From NCBI RefSeq assembly GCF_965641715.1, contig NZ_OZ282453.1: a stretch of DNA of 64,000 bases, one strand, 5' to 3'. Below, in pieces: positions 2,872-21,734 of the stretch. The translations under genes were made by a program, and so were the position numbers. The notes beneath the pieces were generated by a model. That model saw nothing but the letters and a program-made list of their open reading frames with translations. It made no database searches and was not told the origin of the DNA. The DNA is from Escherichia coli. GTDB taxonomy: Bacteria > Pseudomonadota > Gammaproteobacteria > Enterobacterales > Enterobacteriaceae. Positions within the stretch are counted from its first letter, which is position 1, and every line of letters begins with the position of its first letter.

Positions 2872-3345
2872 TTATTTAAAATTAAAGCCATCCGGATGGT
2901 TTTCCAGGCTGCCGGTCAACGCCGCGAACAGCACCGTTTTACCATCAATCGAAAGCGCATCGTTCACATTCAGCCAGGTGAGTTTCTCTTGCGACGTTTT
3001 CTCATCAATAGTCGAGAACAGCCCCGTCATCTGATTAGATTTCTCGGACCACATCACAGCGATACGTTGCGAGCCACAGTCATGCGGTTTGCACGCGCTC
3101 ATCACCTGATACGTCTCATCTCCCAACGTTACGGTTTGTGCGGGAGTATAAGTACCGCCTTTCATCACCCATGCAGGTAGCTTATGCCCTTGCACCATCT
3201 GATTAAACGCAGCTTTGGTGGTTTCGCCCTTTGCCAGGCTGCTAATGGTTAAATCATCCTGCGCCATTGCACTGGTGGCGATGACCAGAGCGGCGACTGT
3301 CGTTATTGCCTTAAACATCATTCCTCCCGAGCTTATCCTGCCCAT
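2872..3345 (-). CDS. ivy: Inhibitor of vertebrate lysozyme Ivy (periplasmic, 157 aa)
   Basis: 157 aa ORF with a signal peptide (MFKAITTVAALVIATSAMAQ) and the CKPHDCG segment typical of Ivy; conserved position next to fadE. Confidence 0.88.
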   Translation of the reverse strand: MGRISSGGMMFKAITTVAALVIATSAMAQDDLTISSLAKGETTKAAFNQMVQGHKLPAWVMKGGTYTPAQTVTLGDETYQVMSACKPHDCGSQRIAVMWSEKSNQMTGLFSTIDEKTSQEKLTWLNVNDALSIDGKTVLFAALTGSLENHPDGFNFK

Positions 3346-3498
3346 GTTATTAACCTCCTAAAGCCTGGCGATAACACGATAATTTGCAAATCAGATATTT
3401 CCAATATCAGCATTTGTTATCAATTTATTCTGCGCTAAGGCAACTGCCTGATAAGGTGTTAAAGTTATAAAACCCTTCGCATAAAGGAGTTGTACACC

Positions 3499-4269
3499 GT
3501 GCCTGGTTTGAAGATTACGCTTTTGCAGCAACCACTGGTGTGGATGGATGGTCCTGCCAACCTGCGCCATTTTGATCGTCAACTGGAAGGTATTACCGGG
3601 CGCGATGTGATCGTTCTACCGGAGATGTTTACCAGCGGCTTTGCCATGGAAGCGGCAGCTTCGTCGCTAGCGCAAGATGACGTAGTGAACTGGATGACAG
3701 CTAAAGCGCAGCAGTGCAATGCGCTGATTGCAGGCAGTGTTGCATTACAAACGGAGTCTGGTTCTGTTAACCGCTTTTTGCTGGTTGAGCCGGGCGGCAC
3801 GGTACATTTTTATGATAAGCGTCATCTGTTCCGCATGGCAGATGAGCATCTACATTATAAACCGGGCAATGCGCGAGTGATTGTGGAATGGCGCGGCTGG
3901 CGTATTTTGCCGCTGGTGTGCTACGACTTACGTTTTCCTGTGTGGTCGCGCAATCTCAACGATTATGACCTCGCCCTGTACGTCGCCAACTGGCCTGCTC
4001 CGCGCTCTCTGCACTGGCAGGCATTGCTGACGGCCCGCGCGATTGAGAATCAGGCGTATGTGGCGGGATGCAATCGCGTCGGCAGCGATGGCAACGGCTG
4101 CCATTATCGCGGTGACAGCCGGGTGATTAATCCACAAGGCGAGATTATCGCTACTGCCGACGCGCATCAGGCAACGCGCATTGATGCGGAGCTGTCGATG
4201 GTGGCATTGCGGGAATATAGAGAAAAGTTTCCGGCATGGCGGGATGCGGATGAGTTTAGGTTGTGGTGA
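3499..4269 (+). CDS. yafV: Nitrilase/omega-amidase family hydrolase YafV
   Basis: ORF 3490..4269; probable GTG start at 3499 giving [11 protein letters not shown]; carbon-nitrogen hydrolase family features and conserved position next to ivy. Confidence 0.85.
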
Positions 4270-4289
4270 GTGGGTGTTGTGTTTAGGGC

Positions 4290-4500
4290 AGGGGAGAGTC
4301 GGGGAAGACTACGAAAGCCCGCTCTCCTGCGACCACTTTTATCATAGGAGTGTGGAAGTGCTTTACCATCAATCGCGATGACGTCTTTGTCATTTGATGA
4401 ATGGCAGTCACGCATCCAGTTAATAAAGCACTCGTGAAATTATACTGAACGGATACAAGACATAACTCTAATTATGGTGTCGTGAACAGGATTACCATTT
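4290..4500 (-). mobile_element. Fragment of an ISAs1-family (H-repeat-associated) transposase gene, N-terminal portion only
   Basis: Minus-strand translation gives [40 protein letters not shown], matching the N-terminal region of H-repeat/ISAs1 transposases; truncated at both ends; ~80% identical at DNA level to 6250..6430. Confidence 0.6.
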
Positions 4501-4539
4501 TCAAAATTACAATATTATTTGCAGTAATTATGTTATTAA

Positions 4540-5052
4540 TCATTGTGATATTTCCATCTCTGTGATTAATACCGGATAAGCATTTAATTGCAGAGTTTGC
4601 ACGAAATTATCGCAGATAACTGGCAATAACAATAACCCATCAGCCCGCTGCTGTAATACCTCCATTCGTTCTACTGATTCAACATTAACAACCAAACCAA
4701 GGGCATTTAGCGATTTAAGGATCTCCAGATGTTCACTCATCCAGCGCAGAGAAAAAGGATCATCACCAATTATAAAAACAGGCCCCCAGCCGGTTAATAA
4801 CTGGCGTTTCATTACGGAACCAGGATGAAGTCGAGTACATATTACAGGAAATACCCCCTGTTGCGATGGTTCCGATGATGTGGATAATTCAGAAATATTT
4901 TCCATTGTTAGTGAAGAATTAACATGCATTAATAATGGTGAAACAACCTCACTTTCCTTGCTAGTAATGGCTGCACTAATCTGAAAGGAAAATAACAATA
5001 TTATTACGTATAAACTCATTTTTAACATAACACATTCAATCCGTTTATTCAT
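4540..5052 (-). CDS. Hypothetical protein with N-terminal hydrophobic signal/anchor (170 aa), AT-rich
   Basis: ORF with hydrophobic N-terminus (MSLYVIILLFSFQISAAITS); low GC relative to flanks; sits between two H-repeat fragments. Function unknown. Confidence 0.4.
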   Translation of the reverse strand: MNKRIECVMLKMSLYVIILLFSFQISAAITSKESEVVSPLLMHVNSSLTMENISELSTSSEPSQQGVFPVICTRLHPGSVMKRQLLTGWGPVFIIGDDPFSLRWMSEHLEILKSLNALGLVVNVESVERMEVLQQRADGLLLLPVICDNFVQTLQLNAYPVLITEMEISQ

Positions 5053-5118
5053 GTTATAGAATAATGATGCTATAAATCATCATTAATGTTCAATTATTTA
5101 ATCACACAATTTAAAAAA

Positions 5119-5622
5119 TCATTGACCAATGTGAATTGGCAATGTACCACTCAAGTTAAAATCACTGAATATTTTATCAATTTCTCTTGCAGTTTCTATA
5201 TATTTAACCTCTTTCGTACTTGCATTATAAATAGCCCAAGCCTCGGGATGGGATGTTCCACCAAACCTTACAAAAAAACTTGATTTCATATTATTATATA
5301 AATTAACATCAGGAAAAGGATCTTCTCCAAAATTAGTAGTATTGAATAATGAAAGTTCGTATCGCTTAGAAAATTCTGTTGGTAGGATAGCTTCACTGCC
5401 ATCAATAGCATTCATCCAGAGTTTGTTACCATTATATTCCAACAATAATCTCTGTTTTGCATGTGTCTTATCTCGTTCTTTAACGACAGCGAATACCTTT
5501 TTAACAACTTGCTGTGCGGATGGTCCTATTGTATTACCAAAAGCTGGCAACCCGATTTTGCCATAAACACTCTCCTGAATGAAATAAATATCCGTTTTAT
5601 CGGCCTCGACAATATCTACCAT
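5119..5622 (-). CDS. Hypothetical protein (167 aa), AT-rich, no recognisable motif
   Basis: Intact ORF between H-repeat fragments; the position suggests an orphan toxin/immunity-type cargo ORF, but nothing in the sequence confirms this. Confidence 0.4.
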   Translation of the reverse strand: MVDIVEADKTDIYFIQESVYGKIGLPAFGNTIGPSAQQVVKKVFAVVKERDKTHAKQRLLLEYNGNKLWMNAIDGSEAILPTEFSKRYELSLFNTTNFGEDPFPDVNLYNNMKSSFFVRFGGTSHPEAWAIYNASTKEVKYIETAREIDKIFSDFNLSGTLPIHIGQ

Positions 5623-5850
5623 TTATCCCTCCAAACAAGACCTGACTCCAGGACAAGAGCATAGTGTGTAGTAAACACTTCATGCTCTTGCCCTGACCAT
5701 TGAAATAACAACTTTCGTTTGTTTACTGTACGCTGTCTAAATAGCTGCGTGGAATAAAGTTGCACTTTTTATCATCCCTTGCAGAACAAGATTACGAAAG
5801 CCCGCCCCCGCAAGGACTGACGCGAGGTAGTCTCTGTCCGCAGCTGCTTT

Positions 5851-6620
5851 TCACATCTTACATCTTGCCCCTGCCTTGATTATCTTATCTTTCGTTAAAA
5901 TATTAATAGCGATCTTCCGTATCCCTGAAAATAATTCTGCTGCATTTCCTCTTCTTATTTTGAAGTCGTCTTTATTCATTACCACGTCCAGATGCCAGTG
6001 CAATTTATTCTCCACTTGCCAGTGATTTCGGTTCGCTGTGGCGAACTTCTCTGCGGTTAAATCAGCAGAAATGCTATAATATCTGACCGTCATTTCGGGA
6101 TTTTTCTTTTGTTCTGCTATTATTGAGCGAAATGAGACTGCCATGCATAATTTCTTCAGCCCTTTCCATTCAAACGTAAAATCAATAAATTCATCAGAGA
6201 CATGCAAACAATATGAAGACGGGTTTTAATGACATAAATTGCTCCCTTGTGACGACTTTTATCATAAGAGTGCCGGAGCGTTTTTCCATCAATTGTAATG
6301 ACGTCTTTATCATCTGAAGAATGACAGTCACGCATCCAGTTAATAAAGCACTCATGAAATTTTTCAGGACTGATACAGGATACAACTCTGGCAATGATAT
6401 CGTGAACAGGAATACCATTTTCAAAATCACCATATCACTTCAAAAAATCGGGATGTGTTTCCCCAAATCCTCTATATCTTCCCAGCATTATGCACCAGAA
6501 ATAACGGCGCAAATAGTTAACAGATAGAATATCTGGCAATTTATGTTCCACTTTCCAGGCTTGCCTGTAATCGGGGATAATAGAAATATGTTCCATCAAT
6601 TTTTTAAGTTCCATTTTGCC
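5851..6620 (-). mobile_element. Degenerate ISAs1-family (H-repeat) element: transposase gene with internal deletion and frame disruption
   Basis: Minus strand encodes [18 protein letters not shown] ... [25 protein letters not shown] (N-terminal part, ~6620..6250) joined to the C-terminal part [12 protein letters not shown] ... [37 protein letters not shown] (ORF 5851..6207); the middle of the transposase is missing. Confidence 0.7.
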
Positions 6621-6759
6621 CCCCTTAATTATGCAATGAGTATTTGATCATGTATAAGCAATGAAAAACAGCTTTAGGTAATAAGGAACACCTCAATTAT
6701 TGAACATAAAATGCGAATTATTTAGTACAAAAAAAGCAGCATTACGTGATTTTTCCCTG

Positions 6760-6817
6760 GGAGTACAGTGTGAAGTTTCCGGCATGGCGGGATGCGGATG
6801 GGTTTGAACTGGGGTGA
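6760..6817 (+). repeat. Diverged duplicate of the yafV 3' end (~58 bp, ~80% identical to 4210..4269)
   Basis: aagtttccggcatggcgggatgcggatg is identical to the last codons of yafV, followed by a diverged tail that still ends in gtga. Confidence 0.6.
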
Positions 6818-6871
6818 TTAGGCACTACATGTCTACATTTTCCCGGTCACCACCCCCTCAATCTTATGAAC

Positions 6872-8965
6872 TTAACCTCGGCTCACCGTTTTCGATTCCA
6901 TCCAATAAATGACCCGGTTGGATGTGGGCTGATCGCCAACAACTTTGCCATCTGCAGAGATTAGCTTCAGCTCTTTATTAGCCTCATCACCGAAGTAAAT
7001 CATGCGGTAGCGAAAATAACCGCCCCAGGGTTCGCGTCCACCCAGCGAACTTTGCATAAACCAGGCGCGGGAGTCGTGAACCTGGTCATCATAGAGAGCC
7101 AGTAATTCAGCGCAGGGCTGAGTACGCGTTCCCGTTCCCAGTGAATCAATAAAAAATTGTGGATAGAGTCCGTCTCCCATAGCCTTAATTTGCTGATATT
7201 CTTTTGCTTCATCATCGCCATTAATCAGATACACCGGATATTTAGGAATGACATCCACAAGAATCTGAATGGCTTTCTCCATGACGCTGCCGTTAATATC
7301 GCGCGTCCATCCTTTATAATCGCTCTGAAATTCTCGGGCTGCCTCTCGCAACTGATACTGAGCATTGGTTGGGTCAAGGATAGGAATGCCCTGATTACTT
7401 TCATCAAGTGTGCCATTCCCTTTCTGCTTGTTCGCCCGCTCTTTTTCAATATTTTCCATTTGTTCTTTACGCGCTTTAGCCTCTTTATCAAGTCCATCTT
7501 TATCCAGCTGTGGCGCCTTAATATAAAAAGGTTGCACAAGAAGGCTGTTATTCGCATAGCGACCGATACGCCAGGCGGTGATCCAGCCGATCTGATCGCT
7601 AATTGCGCTTTCAAGAACCTGGGCAAGTTGATAGGAGTGATAATCTTCCCTCGTATCAATCATTTCTTCTGTACCCTGCAAGGTGGTGTTCAGCAGCGTT
7701 TGTCGCCAGATGTTGAAGCGTTTTGTTAATGAATTAGCAATCGTAAATTCCTTTACGCTAGAAGGACTCATAATTCGCAGAGGCGACACACCTTTTATTA
7801 ATGGAGTAACAAATTTAGAATAAACAGCAAGTGGTGCTCCTGAATCAAATGCAGCAAGATACATATCATGCAGTGCTATCTGAGAAAGAATTTCGCCTGA
7901 GTCACCACAGGACTTCCCCTGATCGCGAACGGGATAGCCACCACCGACATCAGAGTGCATCCCCGGATAGATAATTTCCTCTGCATTTAAAGGATAATTT
8001 CCGTCTGGACGACGGATTGAATCCAGCGGAAAGCACAGCCGCTGCTCATGCGCGGCAACGAAGTGGCGGCAGCATTTAATCAGGCCGGGAAACTGCCTCT
8101 CATCAGGGAGTTGCTGAGTACTATCGGCCCATCCCATATGACCGGCAGCGCCCGGTAAAACATGCGCCGCCCCCACAGAAGCTACGGTATCCAGCAGCCC
8201 CAAAAACTCAATACTGACAGCTAACCCGGCCAGCATCACCTGTTGCTCCTGCGGGCAAGCTAACTGAGTCAACCAGTTAACAAAAGTTCGTGCTTCCGCT
8301 GCGCCACGGGAAAATCCGTAGATAAACAGCTTTACGTTTAGCAGGCGCGGACTGGCTTGCTCTAACAGTCCCTGTAATTTTTCCAGGTAGGGGTTAATCA
8401 CATTGCGACGATTCACTTCACCAGTCATAGGCCAGGGAGCGCGCATAAGAGGAATGTGCTCTTTTGCCACATTATCATCCAGTCGCTTATGGGAAGGGTC
8501 AATGGAATAGCTCAGGGCATCCACGAGGCGTAATAATGCCCAATTAATTCGATCTTCACCACCAGTAGCGAACTCCAGCCCGCTGTTGCTGTAATCCATT
8601 TCACCTATCTTGGGAAATGGTGTGCCTACACCCGGTATATAGTAGTTAAAATATCCCTGTTCTTCTGCGTTCTGATAGGTCGTATGAAACAGTTTGGCAA
8701 TATTGATTGGGTGTCCAGGAGTGTCATTATATTCATTATTATTTGTACCATCAAAAAACAGACTAATATGCAGACTTTGATTACACGTAAAGCCAATTCT
8801 AAATCCAGCCTGTTTACTACAGTTGGTTTTGTGCTCTTCTGTTTTATTGATTTGTTTTAGGTAGTTCGCGTTTACCTGCGCTTCAGATAATATTAATCGC
8901 CCATTTTCAGGAAACGCTGGGGGGGCATAACACGGAAAAGCCAGACCACTTATTTCGCTGGACAT
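6872..8965 (-). CDS. T6SS phospholipase effector candidate, Tle1-like (DUF2235 alpha/beta hydrolase, 697 aa)
   Basis: GxSxG nucleophile motif in KLFIYGFSRGAAEARTFVNWL; last gene of a vgrG-remnant/DUF4123 cargo module; family assignment from motif and context only. Confidence 0.55.
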   Translation of the reverse strand: MSSEISGLAFPCYAPPAFPENGRLILSEAQVNANYLKQINKTEEHKTNCSKQAGFRIGFTCNQSLHISLFFDGTNNNEYNDTPGHPINIAKLFHTTYQNAEEQGYFNYYIPGVGTPFPKIGEMDYSNSGLEFATGGEDRINWALLRLVDALSYSIDPSHKRLDDNVAKEHIPLMRAPWPMTGEVNRRNVINPYLEKLQGLLEQASPRLLNVKLFIYGFSRGAAEARTFVNWLTQLACPQEQQVMLAGLAVSIEFLGLLDTVASVGAAHVLPGAAGHMGWADSTQQLPDERQFPGLIKCCRHFVAAHEQRLCFPLDSIRRPDGNYPLNAEEIIYPGMHSDVGGGYPVRDQGKSCGDSGEILSQIALHDMYLAAFDSGAPLAVYSKFVTPLIKGVSPLRIMSPSSVKEFTIANSLTKRFNIWRQTLLNTTLQGTEEMIDTREDYHSYQLAQVLESAISDQIGWITAWRIGRYANNSLLVQPFYIKAPQLDKDGLDKEAKARKEQMENIEKERANKQKGNGTLDESNQGIPILDPTNAQYQLREAAREFQSDYKGWTRDINGSVMEKAIQILVDVIPKYPVYLINGDDEAKEYQQIKAMGDGLYPQFFIDSLGTGTRTQPCAELLALYDDQVHDSRAWFMQSSLGGREPWGGYFRYRMIYFGDEANKELKLISADGKVVGDQPTSNRVIYWMESKTVSRG

Positions 8966-10594: not shown

Positions 10595-11051
10595 TTATCC
10601 ACGAGGCGCAAAAGCGGCGGCGGCTTCCTGCGCCCTTTTCAGGCACTCCTTACACACCGATTTTTCTGGCGCTTCCTCACCCTCATCGTTGTTATCATTC
10701 TGATCGGACGATGCATTACTATCATTTTGCTCAGCCGCTAAACTTTTATCATCTGCCAGCGCTTTCAGAACCGCCGGTTGCAGCGTCGGCACCGGCGTTC
10801 CCGGACTACCGCCGCTATTGAGATTGATTTTCGGCCCGACGATGTCCACGCCCCCTGAATGGATGACCACAAACGAACCGCCCACCTTCAGGCTTATCCG
10901 GCTGCTGCTCTCCAGCACCACATCGCCCTCCACCTTTAACCACGCCACCGCAGTCAATGGCATCACCGGTTCTGGCGGTAGGTTTATCGTCGATAAAGGC
11001 GGAAGAGGTGTTTCCGGCTCTTAAGAAATATTTACGCACATGCACCAGCAT
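10595..11051 (-). pseudogene. Remnant fusing the 3' end of a PAAR gene to the 3' tail of a vgrG gene (internal deletion)
   Basis: One frame encodes FIDDKPTARTGDAIDCGGVV (PAAR C-terminus, compare PAAR 15133..15417); the adjacent frame encodes LKVEGDVVLESSSRISLKVGGSFVVIHSGGVDIVGPKINLNSGG (VgrG tail, compare vgrG2) followed by an acidic linker. Confidence 0.6.
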
Positions 11052-11082: not shown

Positions 11083-11859
11083 TCAATAAGGTTGCTTTAC
11101 CAAGCTTCCATCGATATTGATGGAAAATTCATTAGACCTAATATGAACAGAATGTTGCTCATCATCTTTATCTAATATTTGATTAACAAAAAAAAACGTA
11201 TTTTTATCAAATTCATAATTATCACATCCCTCTCCACTAAATGATATAGCTCTAAAATCATATTCATTACATGAGTATCTTTTCATCAAAATAGAGAGGA
11301 ATGTTTCATTAATTGATTTTAATACAAACCATTTTCTCCTAACAAGTTTGTAGTTTAATGTTTTTATATGATAATTATTTAAACTGGGGAGAAATGAATG
11401 CATATCATTCAATTTTACATCAAAAGATATTTTTTTACCTGCCGTAATTTCCACCCATCGGCTCAAATTCAAATCAAGCTCAAAGGGACAAAAGCCTCCT
11501 AGATAGTCTAAGCTAATATTTCCTGATGTAATCAAGAATTCGTCATCACACAAAGCATCAAATACATCTCCATTTCCTTTTTGGAAGTTCTTTGGATAAT
11601 ATATTCTGGGGAGAAAATACGATTTAGTACTACTGTTATAAAAAGTTATAGTAGCTAAAATATTTTCAGCATGTGGCTTAACCACCAATTTAACAACAAC
11701 ATCATTTGTTAATTCATTACTTATATTTTCCTCTGGCGCTAAATTATGGCTAAGATAAATAATTGGTTTCCCATTGTCACTTCTTCGTTCAAAACCGAAT
11801 CTGTATTTTTTTACAAAAAGATTCTCATTATCTATTGCAATTGCAATAGATAATGGCAA
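11083..11859 (-). CDS. Hypothetical protein, candidate immunity protein for the upstream metallopeptidase-like effector; N-terminal signal peptide is out of frame
   Basis: Body ORF starts at TTG 11859; a 31-codon ORF from ATG 11923 (one nt after the effector stop) encodes MKRLAFYNLNYVVLMVFFSLFFAIIYCNCNR in the other frame; the two frames would join if one base were removed from the homopolymer tract. Confidence 0.45.
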   Translation of the reverse strand: MPLSIAIAIDNENLFVKKYRFGFERRSDNGKPIIYLSHNLAPEENISNELTNDVVVKLVVKPHAENILATITFYNSSTKSYFLPRIYYPKNFQKGNGDVFDALCDDEFLITSGNISLDYLGGFCPFELDLNLSRWVEITAGKKISFDVKLNDMHSFLPSLNNYHIKTLNYKLVRRKWFVLKSINETFLSILMKRYSCNEYDFRAISFSGEGCDNYEFDKNTFFFVNQILDKDDEQHSVHIRSNEFSINIDGSLVKQPY

Positions 11860-11924: not shown

Positions 11925-12728
11925 TTATTTCCCCGTCAACTCATCAAAACATTTTTCTATCTCTTTTATTTTATCCTCTACTTTTTTTGCTAACATATTC
12001 TCATCTTGAGCTTCAATATCTTCATCATTTAATTTTATATAAAAATATCTTTCAACATTATATGCATTCTCAAATAACTGATCTTTACGCAATGTAACCA
12101 GATCATTAGCCACTGAAACATGTTTCTCATAGCTAACTTCATCCTTATTACTTGTTGCGAACTTATTAATACCCGTATAATCCTGAGTCCACATACCACC
12201 TTTTTGATTGTCACCCCAATACCAAAATATATGGGACATTTCATGGCAAAGTGTACTTACATGAGAGTCTCTACCTGTAACCGACTGTTTTATACCATGT
12301 CTGTATTCAAAATGCGCTCCGATATTTACAATGTAAGGAGGATCAAGATGTGGACTAATAAAAGCAGCAAATTCATTGCAGTTCGTATAATCTTTATAGC
12401 TTTCGATCGTCAAACCATTTGCAATCGTCATTATTCGTCTGATGCCATCCATTATGAATAGTCTCGCTTGCATTCGTTTCCCAGTATCTTCCCCAACTTT
12501 TCTGATTTTTATAATGTCCTCGCCTTTAAGGCCAAAAACTTTAATAAAATCTCGTTGTTGTTCCCCCTCCCATGACATAATATCATCTGCTCTTTTCAAT
12601 AAAACCATTTTCTGTGCTTTACAAGCCTTACTCATCATTATTTTAAATTTATTTGTAATTTTTTGCGGTACTACACATACTTGCGACTCGGGTTGTGAAG
12701 TCCCACTAGTATTATTATTCCCTGCCAT
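11925..12728 (-). CDS. HExxH zinc-metallopeptidase-like T6SS effector candidate (268 aa)
   Basis: HEMSH motif followed by WTQDYTG (loosely aspzincin-like); start ATG at 12728 (MAGNNNTSG) overlaps the vgrG2 stop; the longer ORF 11925..13103 is not used because it overlaps vgrG2. Confidence 0.55.
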   Translation of the reverse strand: MAGNNNTSGTSQPESQVCVVPQKITNKFKIMMSKACKAQKMVLLKRADDIMSWEGEQQRDFIKVFGLKGEDIIKIRKVGEDTGKRMQARLFIMDGIRRIMTIANGLTIESYKDYTNCNEFAAFISPHLDPPYIVNIGAHFEYRHGIKQSVTGRDSHVSTLCHEMSHIFWYWGDNQKGGMWTQDYTGINKFATSNKDEVSYEKHVSVANDLVTLRKDQLFENAYNVERYFYIKLNDEDIEAQDENMLAKKVEDKIKEIEKCFDELTGK

Positions 12729-15114
12729 AATGCCCCTCCGGCTCAATATAAAAAGCATCCGAAAATAACAATTGGACTTTAATTTCCTGTGCTGTATCTG
12801 TATAAAATATTTCTGTATATCCCTCTCTGTCTGTTTCACCACGCGTCTGTGTGCCATCCTCAAAAAAGGCAATATACTGCGTCTCTGAATACGGTATCCC
12901 GTCATCGTCCGTAAAATGGAACTGGAGGGTATATTTTTCAGGATCATCTTCATCGTCACCGCCATCACCTCCTCCGTCACTCCCTGCGGGATTGCCACTA
13001 TCCTCTCCGGAGTCATCACTGCCATCATCACTGCTCTCATCCTCCGGAGCCTCCAGCACCGCCGGCTGCATCGTCCCCACCGGTGTCCCCGCACTGCCCC
13101 CACCGTTCAGGTTTATCTTCGGCCCGGCAATATCCACTCCGCCCGGCTGAATGACGATAAACGAGCCACCCACCTTCAGGCTTATCCGGCTGCTGCTCTC
13201 CAGCACGATATCCCCGTCCACTTTTATCCCCAGCGCGCCACTCACCTTCTCCGCCAGGTCCCCCTTCACCTCCAGGCTGTGCTTCCCCTCCACCAGGCTG
13301 ATGTGGTTACCCGTCGTCTTATGCTCCTGCTTCCCTTTCACCGTCACCCTACGGTCATTTCTGACGTACAGACCGTCATCGTGACTCACGCTCACCGTCC
13401 GGTCATTTGTCACCTTCAGCGTCTGGTCGTTACGTACCGTTATGCTCCGGTCGTTCGCCACCGTGATACTCTGGTCGTGGCCTCCTTCTTTTCTGGTCCC
13501 GACCTCAACCGTCTGCCCCTTCACCACCGTTATCTTCTGGTCGTTACCAATGGTCTCCGTATGGTCATGTTTCACATCCGTTGTCCGGTCGTTGAGCACC
13601 TCCGTATCCATGTTCTTCTGCGCATGGATATACACCTGCTCATTACTGGTGGCGTCCTCAAAGCGCAACTCGTTAAATCCGCTTCCTTTATAGGTCTTCG
13701 ACCGTATCGTCATCTGCGTCTTCGTCCCCGGCAGGCTCCCCGGCGAACGGTTGTCCTCATGGTACGTCCGGCCCATGACCAGCGGCTGGTCCGGGTCTCC
13801 GTTCAGGAAGTCAACAATCACCTCCTGACCCACCCGCGGTATCGCCAGGTTACCAAACCCCGGCCCCGCCCACGCCTGTGATACCCGCACCCAGCATGAA
13901 CTCGCCTCCGTCATCCCGTGATAACGGTCCCAGTGGAACTTCACCCGTACCCGGCCATGTTCGTCGCAGAATATCTCCTCACCCTTCGGCCCGGTGACAA
14001 TGGCGCTCTGCGGCCCGTCCACCTTCGGTTTGCTTTGCAGCCGTGGACGCCACGTCCGGTCCGCCGGTATCACCTCTAACTGATTTCCCAGCGTGGTTCC
14101 TCTCCCCTGGCTGCCGTGCAGCGCCTGCGGCTGGCTTCCTGACAGTATGCTCTGTACCACCTGCCATTCACGGTTCAGCATCTTCTGCGGATGCCCCGTC
14201 AGCGTAAACCGCGTTCCCGGCCACAGCCTCGGCGAATTACTCTGCCCTGTGGCCTTTTCCGCATCACTGCGCAGGCTCTCCATCTGGTACAGCGTGAAAT
14301 CCTTGCCGTGCTGCTCATCCTTGAACCTTCCCGGATAATCAAATATCTCGTACTGCGCCAGCTGTCCGTTCAGGTTCTCACCCTGCTGCTCATACATCCC
14401 CGGCCAGTCCGGCACCTTAAACGTGTAATCCTGGCTCTGCACCGACGACGGGCGGACATGCGCCTCATAACGGAACATACTGAGACACTCCGTCTCCGCT
14501 CCTGCCGATGTGTCCGGGTTAAACGGAAGCTCTCCCGCCTGTGACAGCCCCGCCACATCGTCGCACAGCGTCAGCTTCTGCTCCGGACTGTCCGCCGCAA
14601 ACCGCTCAAAGAAGAAAATTCCTTCTTCCGCCCACAGCCGAGCCAGAAACGCCAGGTCGCTCTCCCCGTACTGGACACAGAACTCCCGCGCCGGATGGTC
14701 TTCATAAAACAGCGGAGTCCACTCCGTGACGCCGTTCTCGTTCAGTAACGTGGCCGATATCGTCCGGATATCCTGCTGCTGAAAAATACGAAAGTTCTGC
14801 CGCAGCCCGCACCGCCATAACGGCGGCTCAATACGCAGGTGATAACGCATCTGCCAGCCGTTGTTCTCCTGCATGCCAAAGCCCGCCACCACGCCGGTGA
14901 CATAACGCTGCGCCACCGCGCCCTGCCAGATGGCCAGCGTCGCCTTCTTCTCCAGCAGCATCTCCGCCGTCTGCATAAAAGAGTCGCTGGCAACATCCAC
15001 ACTCATCACAAACGGATAAGACTGGTTCTGGATTAACCTGAAATTCACCACTGCAAAGGTGTCCGGCTCCTGGCCGTCAATCTCCAGCGTAAAGCGCAGA
15101 CCGTTTAAGGACAT
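12715..15114 (-). CDS. vgrG: VgrG spike protein with C-terminal extension (799 aa)
   Basis: N-terminal 480 aa identical to the vgrG at 19037..20995; gp27/gp5-like repeats (VKGDLAEKVSG..., ISLKVGGSF...); acidic D/E/G/S linker and an extra ~60 aa C-terminal domain. Confidence 0.9.
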   Translation of the reverse strand: MSLNGLRFTLEIDGQEPDTFAVVNFRLIQNQSYPFVMSVDVASDSFMQTAEMLLEKKATLAIWQGAVAQRYVTGVVAGFGMQENNGWQMRYHLRIEPPLWRCGLRQNFRIFQQQDIRTISATLLNENGVTEWTPLFYEDHPAREFCVQYGESDLAFLARLWAEEGIFFFERFAADSPEQKLTLCDDVAGLSQAGELPFNPDTSAGAETECLSMFRYEAHVRPSSVQSQDYTFKVPDWPGMYEQQGENLNGQLAQYEIFDYPGRFKDEQHGKDFTLYQMESLRSDAEKATGQSNSPRLWPGTRFTLTGHPQKMLNREWQVVQSILSGSQPQALHGSQGRGTTLGNQLEVIPADRTWRPRLQSKPKVDGPQSAIVTGPKGEEIFCDEHGRVRVKFHWDRYHGMTEASSCWVRVSQAWAGPGFGNLAIPRVGQEVIVDFLNGDPDQPLVMGRTYHEDNRSPGSLPGTKTQMTIRSKTYKGSGFNELRFEDATSNEQVYIHAQKNMDTEVLNDRTTDVKHDHTETIGNDQKITVVKGQTVEVGTRKEGGHDQSITVANDRSITVRNDQTLKVTNDRTVSVSHDDGLYVRNDRRVTVKGKQEHKTTGNHISLVEGKHSLEVKGDLAEKVSGALGIKVDGDIVLESSSRISLKVGGSFIVIQPGGVDIAGPKINLNGGGSAGTPVGTMQPAVLEAPEDESSDDGSDDSGEDSGNPAGSDGGGDGGDDEDDPEKYTLQFHFTDDDGIPYSETQYIAFFEDGTQTRGETDREGYTEIFYTDTAQEIKVQLLFSDAFYIEPEGHYGRE

Positions 15115-21215: not shown

Positions 21216-21734
21216 TTATGCTTCCAGCGGTGCACGCCAGTCATCGGCACCAGAAGTACCGGATTTGATGTGCTCCCACTCAACCTTACGGTATGCCAGT
21301 GATACTGCGAGCAATTGCGTAAACTCACGCTGTGCAGGGTCCTGGCAGTGCGGCATGTGCAGGTTCATGTCCACAATCGTCGCGTCAGTAAGACGTGTGG
21401 TGAAGTAGTGCTCCTGCTTGCCTTCAACTGAAGTACGCCACCAGTGCAGCTCCACTTTCGGCAGCATTTCACCGGAGGCCAGCGCGTTGTACAGCAGCGG
21501 AACGGCTTTGTTCAGCGCCACGGTGAAAATGAACGGTTTGTGCGCGCGCTGCCCGGAAGGTTGACCAGACTGTGGATCGGTTGGAACAGTAACGTTATGC
21601 AGAAACTCCTGCACCAGCATTTCATCTTCGTGTCCCTGCACGTAGATATTGCCGACAGAATCTGCGGTGAAAGCACCGGCAGTGATGTTCCCCTGGGTCT
21701 GACCTGTAATTGAAATGTAACATGGGGTTGGCAT
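21216..21734 (-). CDS. hcp: Hcp tube protein (172 aa)
   Basis: Hcp family sequence (MPTPCYISITGQTQGNITAGAFT...); first gene of the minus-strand hcp-vgrG cargo operon. Confidence 0.88.
   Translation of the reverse strand: MPTPCYISITGQTQGNITAGAFTADSVGNIYVQGHEDEMLVQEFLHNVTVPTDPQSGQPSGQRAHKPFIFTVALNKAVPLLYNALASGEMLPKVELHWWRTSVEGKQEHYFTTRLTDATIVDMNLHMPHCQDPAQREFTQLLAVSLAYRKVEWEHIKSGTSGADDWRAPLEA

Follow-up and report, generated by a model that had tools for sequence, protein, structure and literature searches.

The window analysed here, 64,000 nucleotides of an Escherichia coli chromosome (assembly GCF_965641715.1, contig NZ_OZ282453.1), contains at the yafV end of its type VI secretion system (T6SS-1) island a pair of AT-rich minus-strand genes, ORF2 (5119–5622, 167 amino acids) and ORF1 (4540–5028, 162 amino acids), and the best-supported reading, for and against which the evidence is about evenly balanced, is the proposal that ORF2 is a cargo effector of T6SS-1 and ORF1 a recruited periplasmic immunity protein of the DUF2859 family. 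The proposal is carried by linkage to secretion genes (the pair lies in the aspV–yafV island, relatives of ORF2 adjoin hcp, tssBC and tssM–tssF, and a divergent E. coli allele of the pair follows PAAR-like genes), by layout, in which ORF2 is followed by a same-strand gene for an exported protein, and by retention, as ORF2 is almost never kept without ORF1. We infer from the pair and its relatives that ORF2 would be secreted by the T6SS and be toxic, what it would act on, and that ORF1 would neutralise it.

The original prediction had described two AT-rich orphan ORFs of 170 and 167 amino acids within 4540–5622, and both were recovered on the minus strand, at 4540–5052 and 5119–5622, with GC fractions of 0.378 (ORF1) and 0.347 (ORF2) next to 0.547 in yafV, 0.561 both in fadE and in the T6SS core genes, and 0.504 in the island as a whole. 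The gap from ORF2 to ORF1 is 66–90 nt depending on the ORF1 start. The accessory block that holds the pair begins after yafV and continues to the tRNA-Asp gene aspV at 43483–43559, forming a T6SS-1 island of ca. 39 kb, when the corresponding interval of K-12 contains only yafF, yafU, ykfM and yafT. PGAP calls in a 99.4%-identical genome identify in the first part of the block a Tle1-like phospholipase, DUF3304, DUF4123, a vgrG fragment, an M35 peptidase, vgrG and hcp. The pair thus forms the distal, yafV-side edge of the T6SS-1 effector array, and shares its strand with the Tle1, DUF3304, DUF4123, vgrG and hcp genes.

ORF2 encodes a cytoplasmic protein of ca. 19 kDa without a signal peptide, preceded by a GGAGGG Shine-Dalgarno sequence. 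It returned no match in Pfam, NCBIfam or PADLOC, and belongs to a rare, unnamed, T6SS-linked family. A word-indexed search reached E. coli relatives only, including an allele with 68% identity, when HMMER, run exhaustively over 1.84 billion representatives of clusters, produced 31 matches, among them proteins of 180–196 amino acids at 30–40% identity; a profile search extended the family to Burkholderia and Paraburkholderia. ORF2 aligns from residue 1 with free-standing proteins of 165–196 amino acids, and about 30 residues found in all other family members are missing from both E. coli alleles. The near-invariant positions of the family are mostly Gly and Pro, together with D101 and Y109; Cys, His and Ser are absent from the conserved residues. 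From an alignment of 30 sequences, AlphaFold (AF2) gave a confident, mainly beta model of ORF2 with a pLDDT of 84.3 and a pTM of 0.79 (single-sequence prediction, pLDDT 36.5), for which searches of PDB and BFVD found no structural neighbours.

The genomic setting of the ORF2 relatives was surveyed by 12 exact-sequence look-ups, one of which had no locus, and about ten distinct contexts outside E. coli were obtained. The closest relative outside E. coli (P0008, 40% identity) begins 16 nt past hcp (Pfam Hcp, 1e-25), within a small island between wecH-like and yiaB-like genes; this island is absent from E. coli genomes. A Paraburkholderia member (P0041) is located between tssK-tssL-tssM-dotU and tssF-tssG, and a further one (P0018) follows directly after tssB-tssC, with several small exported proteins, ImpE, tssE, tssF and tssG downstream. 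Contact with T6SS core genes was found in three of the ca. ten non-E. coli contexts, which is far above chance for genes occupying well under 1% of a genome, the background being estimated and not computed. One member (P0039) lies about 2 kb from a Tai4 immunity gene, and the other family members were identified in orphan two- or three-gene cassettes amid housekeeping genes.

Side observations were made in a metagenomic T6SS cluster (L023, 5837–16543), in which the ORF2 homologue occupies the slot after tssB-tssC, the common position of hcp. None of the eight small ORFs scanned past this homologue matches the Hcp Pfam model, and one ORF of 126 amino acids bears a GHCAKY motif resembling those of amidase effectors.

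Outside E. coli, the ORF2 relative is in nearly all loci followed by a gene for a protein of 145–165 amino acids with about four hydrophobic helices; in one locus (L004) the partner is convergent, and one short contig (L009) could not be assessed. These four-helix proteins are mutually homologous across five loci, and a gene for a DUF805 membrane protein is often next. A soluble, signal-less protein followed by a small membrane protein is the layout of a T6SS effector with a membrane-located immunity protein.

In E. coli the place of this partner is taken by ORF1. Its true start is probably the ATG at 5028 (MLKMSLYV...), giving 162 amino acids, because PGAP uses this position and because in the divergent allele (L002) the upstream ATG runs directly into a stop codon; the 170-amino-acid ORF of the original prediction extends to 5052. 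The N-terminus is hydrophobic and ends in ISA-A, a predicted Sec-type signal peptide. ORF1 matches PF11072 (DUF2859; 2.3e-28, 99.3 bits against a cut-off of 25) and TIGR03765 (PFL_4695; 2.2e-35, 120.6 bits against a cut-off of 59.75) over model positions 1–105 of 105, and has the layout of the family, a signal peptide and a C-terminal domain of ca. 105 amino acids. The earlier statement that no motif was recognisable in the two ORFs consequently holds for ORF2 and has to be revised for ORF1, and the homology and structure searches it had recommended yielded the family of ORF1 and distant relatives of ORF2, with no structural neighbour for the latter. PDB sequence and profile searches with ORF1, ORF2 and their alignments returned chance matches only. 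The GDDPFSLRW segment of DUF2859 raises a suspicion, not put forward as a claim, of a TraF-like thioredoxin fold lacking CxxC.

Word-based searching with ORF1 found close E. coli relatives only, and the contexts of distant DUF2859 genes were obtained by tblastn against plasmids. In an alignment of seven sequences (ORF1, the L002 allele, and five homologues of integrating conjugative elements (ICEs) or plasmids with 34–37% identity), 26 columns were invariant, 25 of them beyond the initiator Met, and by definition ORF1 keeps them all. A motif following the signal peptide, LNVIADxGG, is present in four of the five ICE/plasmid homologues and as a variant in the fifth, and ORF1 is without it. The five loci (plasmids of Erwinia, pEB102, and of K. 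pneumoniae, S. marcescens, Pantoea and Rhizobium) share in essence one gene order: PilL, DUF2275 or a hypothetical protein, TIGR03759, an SLT lytic transglycosylase, DUF2859, in some cases a restriction endonuclease, and TraD. In two of the five, the gene upstream of DUF2859 is without a transglycosylase annotation and the enzyme was presumed; the transglycosylase and DUF2859 genes frequently overlap by 4 nt. The neighbours of ORF1 are ISAs1, ORF2, yafV and T6SS genes, and since the PilL/TIGR03759/SLT/TraD module is missing here, ORF1 is a DUF2859 family member outside its defining context. The position of DUF2859 directly after an annotated or presumed envelope-active transglycosylase makes it plausible that members of the family partner an envelope-active protein in a protective or regulatory role, and from this position and the coupling of the two genes it is conceivable that DUF2859 binds or restrains such a partner.

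The SLT gene preceding DUF2859 in ICEs, together with E-S, GPSxxQ and AxYN motifs in ORF2, had raised the suspicion that ORF2 is a divergent SLT lytic transglycosylase. This identity was excluded by the mostly beta model, the lack of a PF01464 match, and a BLASTP E-value of 3.3 against the pEB102 transglycosylase; the enzymes in question have an alpha-helical, lysozyme-like fold with ES, GLMQ and AYNxG motifs.

A second allele of the pair was identified in 12 genomes (e.g. L002 and L019), in which ORF2 and ORF1 directly follow same-strand genes for DUF4150, PAAR-like, WD40-like, 411-amino-acid and thioredoxin-like proteins, and a single near-full-length ISAs1 lies between ORF1 and yafV. The GGAGGG sequence ahead of ORF2 is retained in both alleles. 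Between the alleles, ORF1 has a protein identity of 76%, dS of 0.39 and dN/dS of 0.35 (Fisher p = 3e-5), and ORF2 an identity of 68%, dS of 0.60 and dN/dS of 0.30 (p = 9e-8); the respective values for the adjacent yafV are 98%, 0.057 and 0.15 (Fisher not tested). Both genes are under purifying selection, and because they in addition have homologues of the same length, they are not chance ORFs. As the ISAs1 next to ORF1 is similarly diverged (81% nucleotide identity), ISAs1, ORF1 and ORF2 have the appearance of an old haplotype whose parts diverged together, next to a core gene that recombines. Ahead of the ORF2 homologue in the second allele (L019 8456–12797, L002 4931–7576), the PAAR-like protein is followed by three uncharacterised genes, encoding a WD40/BNR-like protein (ca. 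327–342 amino acids), a 411-amino-acid protein without a family, and a 137-amino-acid cytoplasmic thioredoxin-like protein with CxxC.

The 2.7-kb arrangement was present at a query coverage of at least 80% in 540 of 5,426 complete E. coli genomes; conservation elsewhere, on which the original prediction had staked itself, thus extends across the species, and beyond it across the 31 clusters of the ORF2 family. ORF2 (at least 80% of its length) was counted in 554 genomes, ORF1 DNA in 754, and both genes in 553, which means that practically no genome carries the putative toxin in the absence of its putative immunity gene. The pair has in essence a single chromosomal location (median number of places per genome, one), with three places recorded as plasmid. 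ORF2 is almost invariant, with an identity of 99% or more in 546 of the 559 genomes with a match, and ORF1 is more variable, reaching this level in 197 of 757 and 95–99% in 547, part of the variation being due to pseudogenised copies of the CFT073 type. In the roughly 200 genomes that have ORF1 DNA without ORF2, one locus was inspected, that of CFT073 (L018, 5001–6409), where an IS630 remnant stands in place of ORF2 and ORF1 has a frameshift and a premature stop codon. Retention of ORF2 with ORF1 and decay of ORF1 after loss of ORF2 fit a toxin that has its own antidote, but linked decay by itself would give a similar picture. RefSeq still annotates a 66-amino-acid "PFL_4695 family" coding sequence at the decayed CFT073 gene.

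PLSDB holds three E. coli "plasmid" records with ORF1, NZ_CP010208.1, NZ_CP061330.1 and NZ_CP141089.1. The first carries yafV, ivy, fadE and lpcA, the last is 4.9 Mb in size, and the records look like chromosomal DNA filed as plasmids, as judged from these two, NZ_CP061330.1 not having been inspected.

If ORF2 and ORF1 are indeed an effector and its immunity protein, they would constitute a bicistronic module at the yafV end of the T6SS-1 island, in which ORF2 would be loaded on Hcp or the spike, fired into neighbouring bacteria, and act on the envelope of the target cell, when ORF1 would be exported to the periplasm of the producer and neutralise incoming ORF2. In the E. coli lineage, a DUF2859 protein originating from conjugative elements may have taken over from the four-helix inner-membrane protector. 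A more far-reaching version, which we put forward with considerable doubt, is that ORF2 founds a T6SS effector family with a previously unseen beta-rich fold, non-enzymatic and envelope-targeting, whose four-helix immunity protein was exchanged in E. coli for an ICE DUF2859 protein that natively, in MPF_G type IV secretion systems, binds or restrains an adjacent lytic transglycosylase.

Several points weigh against the effector-immunity proposal. The context survey sampled only about ten loci outside E. coli, and DUF2859 is unrelated to the four-helix partner usual in the ORF2 family. The ca. 30 residues missing from E. coli ORF2 suggest that its activity may be altered or lost; no recognisable catalytic motif was found in the protein, and no delivery marker (PAAR, MIX, Rhs, an own DUF4123 adaptor, or a VgrG or Hcp fusion) was detected with Pfam and NCBIfam. 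Retention by ORF1 of the residues shared with ICE and plasmid homologues would equally fit an unchanged conjugation-type role, and no report of a DUF2859 immunity protein was found in the literature. A promoter scan near the pair gave 11 sites against 9.4 expected, no better than shuffled sequence. In the window an ISAs1 remnant separates the pair from the upstream T6SS operon; the ETEC6335 allele, in which the pair directly follows PAAR-like and DUF4150 genes and no IS element intervenes, speaks for the proposal.

Among the alternatives, the one that survives best, although we regard it as unlikely, is that both genes are functional without being an effector and its antidote, ORF2 serving as a chaperone, adaptor or regulator of the T6SS and ORF1 being a periplasmic protein that keeps a conjugation-type activity and is linked to ORF2 by co-inheritance alone. 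Such roles would account for an ORF2 without a catalytic signature, for the relative located after tssBC in the usual spot of hcp, for the preservation in ORF1 of all residues common to its ICE and plasmid homologues, and for purifying selection on both genes. They account less well for the orphan cassettes far from T6SS genes, which keep the small membrane partner and fit the logic of toxin and immunity better, for the absence of type IV secretion system genes within 9 kb of ORF1 (annotated near-identical locus), and for the decay of ORF1 after the loss of ORF2.

Somewhat less probable again is a decaying relic, an old ICE fragment (ORF1) and a crippled effector without its immunity gene (ORF2) hitch-hiking between dead IS copies. 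The dead ISAs1 copies on either side, the shortening of E. coli ORF2 by ca. 30 residues, the low GC content, and the ca. 200 genomes with ORF1 DNA alone, including the CFT073 pseudogene, are what such decay would leave. However, both genes are intact in about 553 genomes, with no PGAP pseudogene flags in the records listed, and their dN/dS ratios of 0.30–0.35 are significantly below 1 over a dS of 0.4–0.6. The near-uniformity of ORF2 (at least 99% identity in 546 of 559 genomes) also speaks against a relic, as does its deletion: both alleles have it in common, so that selection has acted since it arose.

That the pair is IS-borne cargo unrelated to the T6SS, for instance a phage-defence module moved as an ISAs1 composite transposon, appears improbable. 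Degenerate ISAs1 (H-repeat) fragments were present on both sides of the pair as predicted, with NF033564 and DDE_Tnp_1 matches and PGAP pseudogene calls; the two same-orientation copies bracket the pair, and the duplicated 3′-end of yafV around the block points to insertion or recombination. Remnant A (4283–4520, minus strand; NF033564; direct repeats D1, D3 and D7 relative to copy B; PGAP "ISAs1 family transposase, incomplete, internal stop") consists of the 3′ terminal motif (4305–4322) fused straight to an internal segment (4321–4520), with the remainder deleted, and is 81% identical both to copy B, over a 200-nt stretch, and to the near-full-length ISAs1 at the equivalent position in L002. 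Copy B (5787–6735, minus strand; NF033564 9e-28, DDE_Tnp_1, DDE_Tnp_1_assoc; PGAP "frameshifted; internal stop") is degenerate, with frameshifts, stop codons and a 312-nt internal deletion, and aligns with the L002 ISAs1 at 90% identity in two blocks, between which L002 9758–10069 is passed over. As read from their sequences, both copies are dead and of different lineages.

Since the divergence of remnant A seems to have gone along with that of the cassette, recent delivery by this copy is not supported, and the predicted delivery by IS elements cannot be shown. A composite transposon is further contradicted by the 81% identity of the copies, the defects in both, and the near-restriction of the pair to a single chromosomal location, with a median of one place per genome; a comparable PLSDB record that was inspected is a chromosomal fragment with yafV, ivy and fadE. 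In the L002/L019 allele a single ISAs1 stands on one side only and the pair is contiguous with PAAR-type effector genes, the relatives of ORF2 are linked to T6SS genes and not to IS elements, and PADLOC returned no defence-system match for ORF1, ORF2 or the neighbouring genes of L002.

H-repeat/ISAs1 elements are classically found near rhs loci and the pair lies in a T6SS effector region, but an orphan C-terminal tip of an Rhs protein, accompanied by its immunity gene, is very improbable, being contradicted by the own ATG and Shine-Dalgarno sequence of ORF2, its alignment from the first residues with free-standing homologues of similar length, the absence of RHS or PAAR matches in Pfam and NCBIfam, and the absence of an annotated rhs core fragment upstream. 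The original prediction of toxin/immunity-like cargo beside IS fragments is therefore sustained in its context, through the T6SS array and the T6SS-embedded relatives of ORF2, and not in its suggestion of an Rhs tip.

The core genes of the chromosome are represented in the window by fadE (307–2829), ivy (2872–3345) and yafV (3490–4269), the last on the plus strand, encoding 2-oxoglutaramate amidase with 98% identity to K-12 and marking the island boundary. On the other side of the pair, the next gene in the same orientation encodes a Tle1-type T6SS phospholipase effector (6872–8965, minus strand), identified from its ORF and from the PGAP annotation of the 99.4%-identical genome. Between ISAs1 copy B and the Tle1 stop codon lies a copy of the yafV end of about 64 nt (6759–6822, plus strand; direct repeat D2, 80% identical to 4211–4274). 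The enclosure of ISAs1-A, ORF1, ORF2 and ISAs1-B within a duplicated yafV end suggests that recombination brought the block into a strain in which Tle1 had formerly been adjacent to yafV. This exact junction was found in only 70 genomes, when the cassette is present in 540.

Just upstream of the ribosome-binding site of ORF2, about 25 nt before the start codon, lies an inverted repeat (5649–5695; arms of 21 nt, loop of 5 nt); Rfam gave zero matches over 4200–6900, the repeat included. Further into the island, a 123-amino-acid C-terminal fragment of vgrG (10595–10966, minus strand; incomplete VgrG according to PGAP) stands ahead of DUF4123, DUF3304 and Tle1, and the spike gene proper to the Tle1 module thus seems to have been lost. 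Two AT-rich minus-strand ORFs downstream of vgrG (GC ca. 0.29), at 11083–11859 (258 amino acids) and 11925–13103 (peptidase M35 according to PGAP), probably represent a further effector-immunity pair.

In RefSeq the products of the pair are named "hypothetical protein" and "integrating conjugative element protein", and nothing on the pair was found in the literature searched. T6SS effector-immunity pairs in E. coli islands are already known, and what would be new is an unnamed effector family without structural match and a putative immunity protein from a conjugation family. Roughly a tenth of the complete E. coli genomes have the pair, isolates from humans, poultry and livestock among them, and ORF2, if it is a T6SS-1 effector, would be an unrecognised weapon in the competition of E. 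coli in the gut and part of a new effector family in Burkholderia, Paraburkholderia, loci with Serratia-like neighbourhoods and soil metagenomes. ORF1 as an immunity protein would provide the first functional clue for the conserved, uncharacterised DUF2859 of ICE/MPF_G conjugation systems and an example of immunity-gene replacement within an effector family, and if the restraining role of DUF2859 is real, a protective module would have passed from type IV to type VI secretion. Unless such a link between conjugation and T6SS proteins proves real, the pair is conceptually unsurprising. Even as a relic, the locus would still be of use as a marker for tracing past recombination on the yafV side of the T6SS-1 island.

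Comparable to the proposed pair is Ssp4/Sip4 of Serratia marcescens, a T6SS effector with a membrane-located immunity protein, described in a study which also repeats the rule that where the immunity protein is located shows where the effector acts (PMC12669606). Like Ssp4, the ORF2 family is without a recognised domain or PDB neighbour and is found within T6SS clusters or, as orphans, in insertions of two or three genes, and its members outside E. coli are, as with Sip4, followed by a small four-helix inner-membrane protein. Ssp4 is largely alpha-helical, with 13 helices (PMC12669606), whereas the ORF2 model is mostly beta, a difference drawn from the description and not from direct comparison of the sequences, and the E. 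coli partner of ORF2 is, unlike Sip4, a predicted soluble exported DUF2859 protein.

With the DUF2859 proteins of ICE/MPF_G systems, ORF1 shares scores far above the cut-offs, size and layout, and the invariant residues, but it lies outside a conjugation module, its upstream partner ORF2 is unrelated to the transglycosylase, and the LNVIADxGG motif is missing. The orphan effector islands linked to Hcp find their parallel in the relative that begins 16 nt after hcp, and the mass of ORF2, ca. 19 kDa, is within the range generally considered to fit the Hcp tube; in the window, however, hcp is not adjacent, the nearest copy being at 21216–21734, about 16 kb away. Tle1 differs from ORF2 in its DUF2235 lipase domain with GxSxG and its known delivery by VgrG, but the ORF2 and ORF1 genes lie in the same island and on the same strand as Tle1/Tli1 and, like that pair, would combine an effector with an exported partner.

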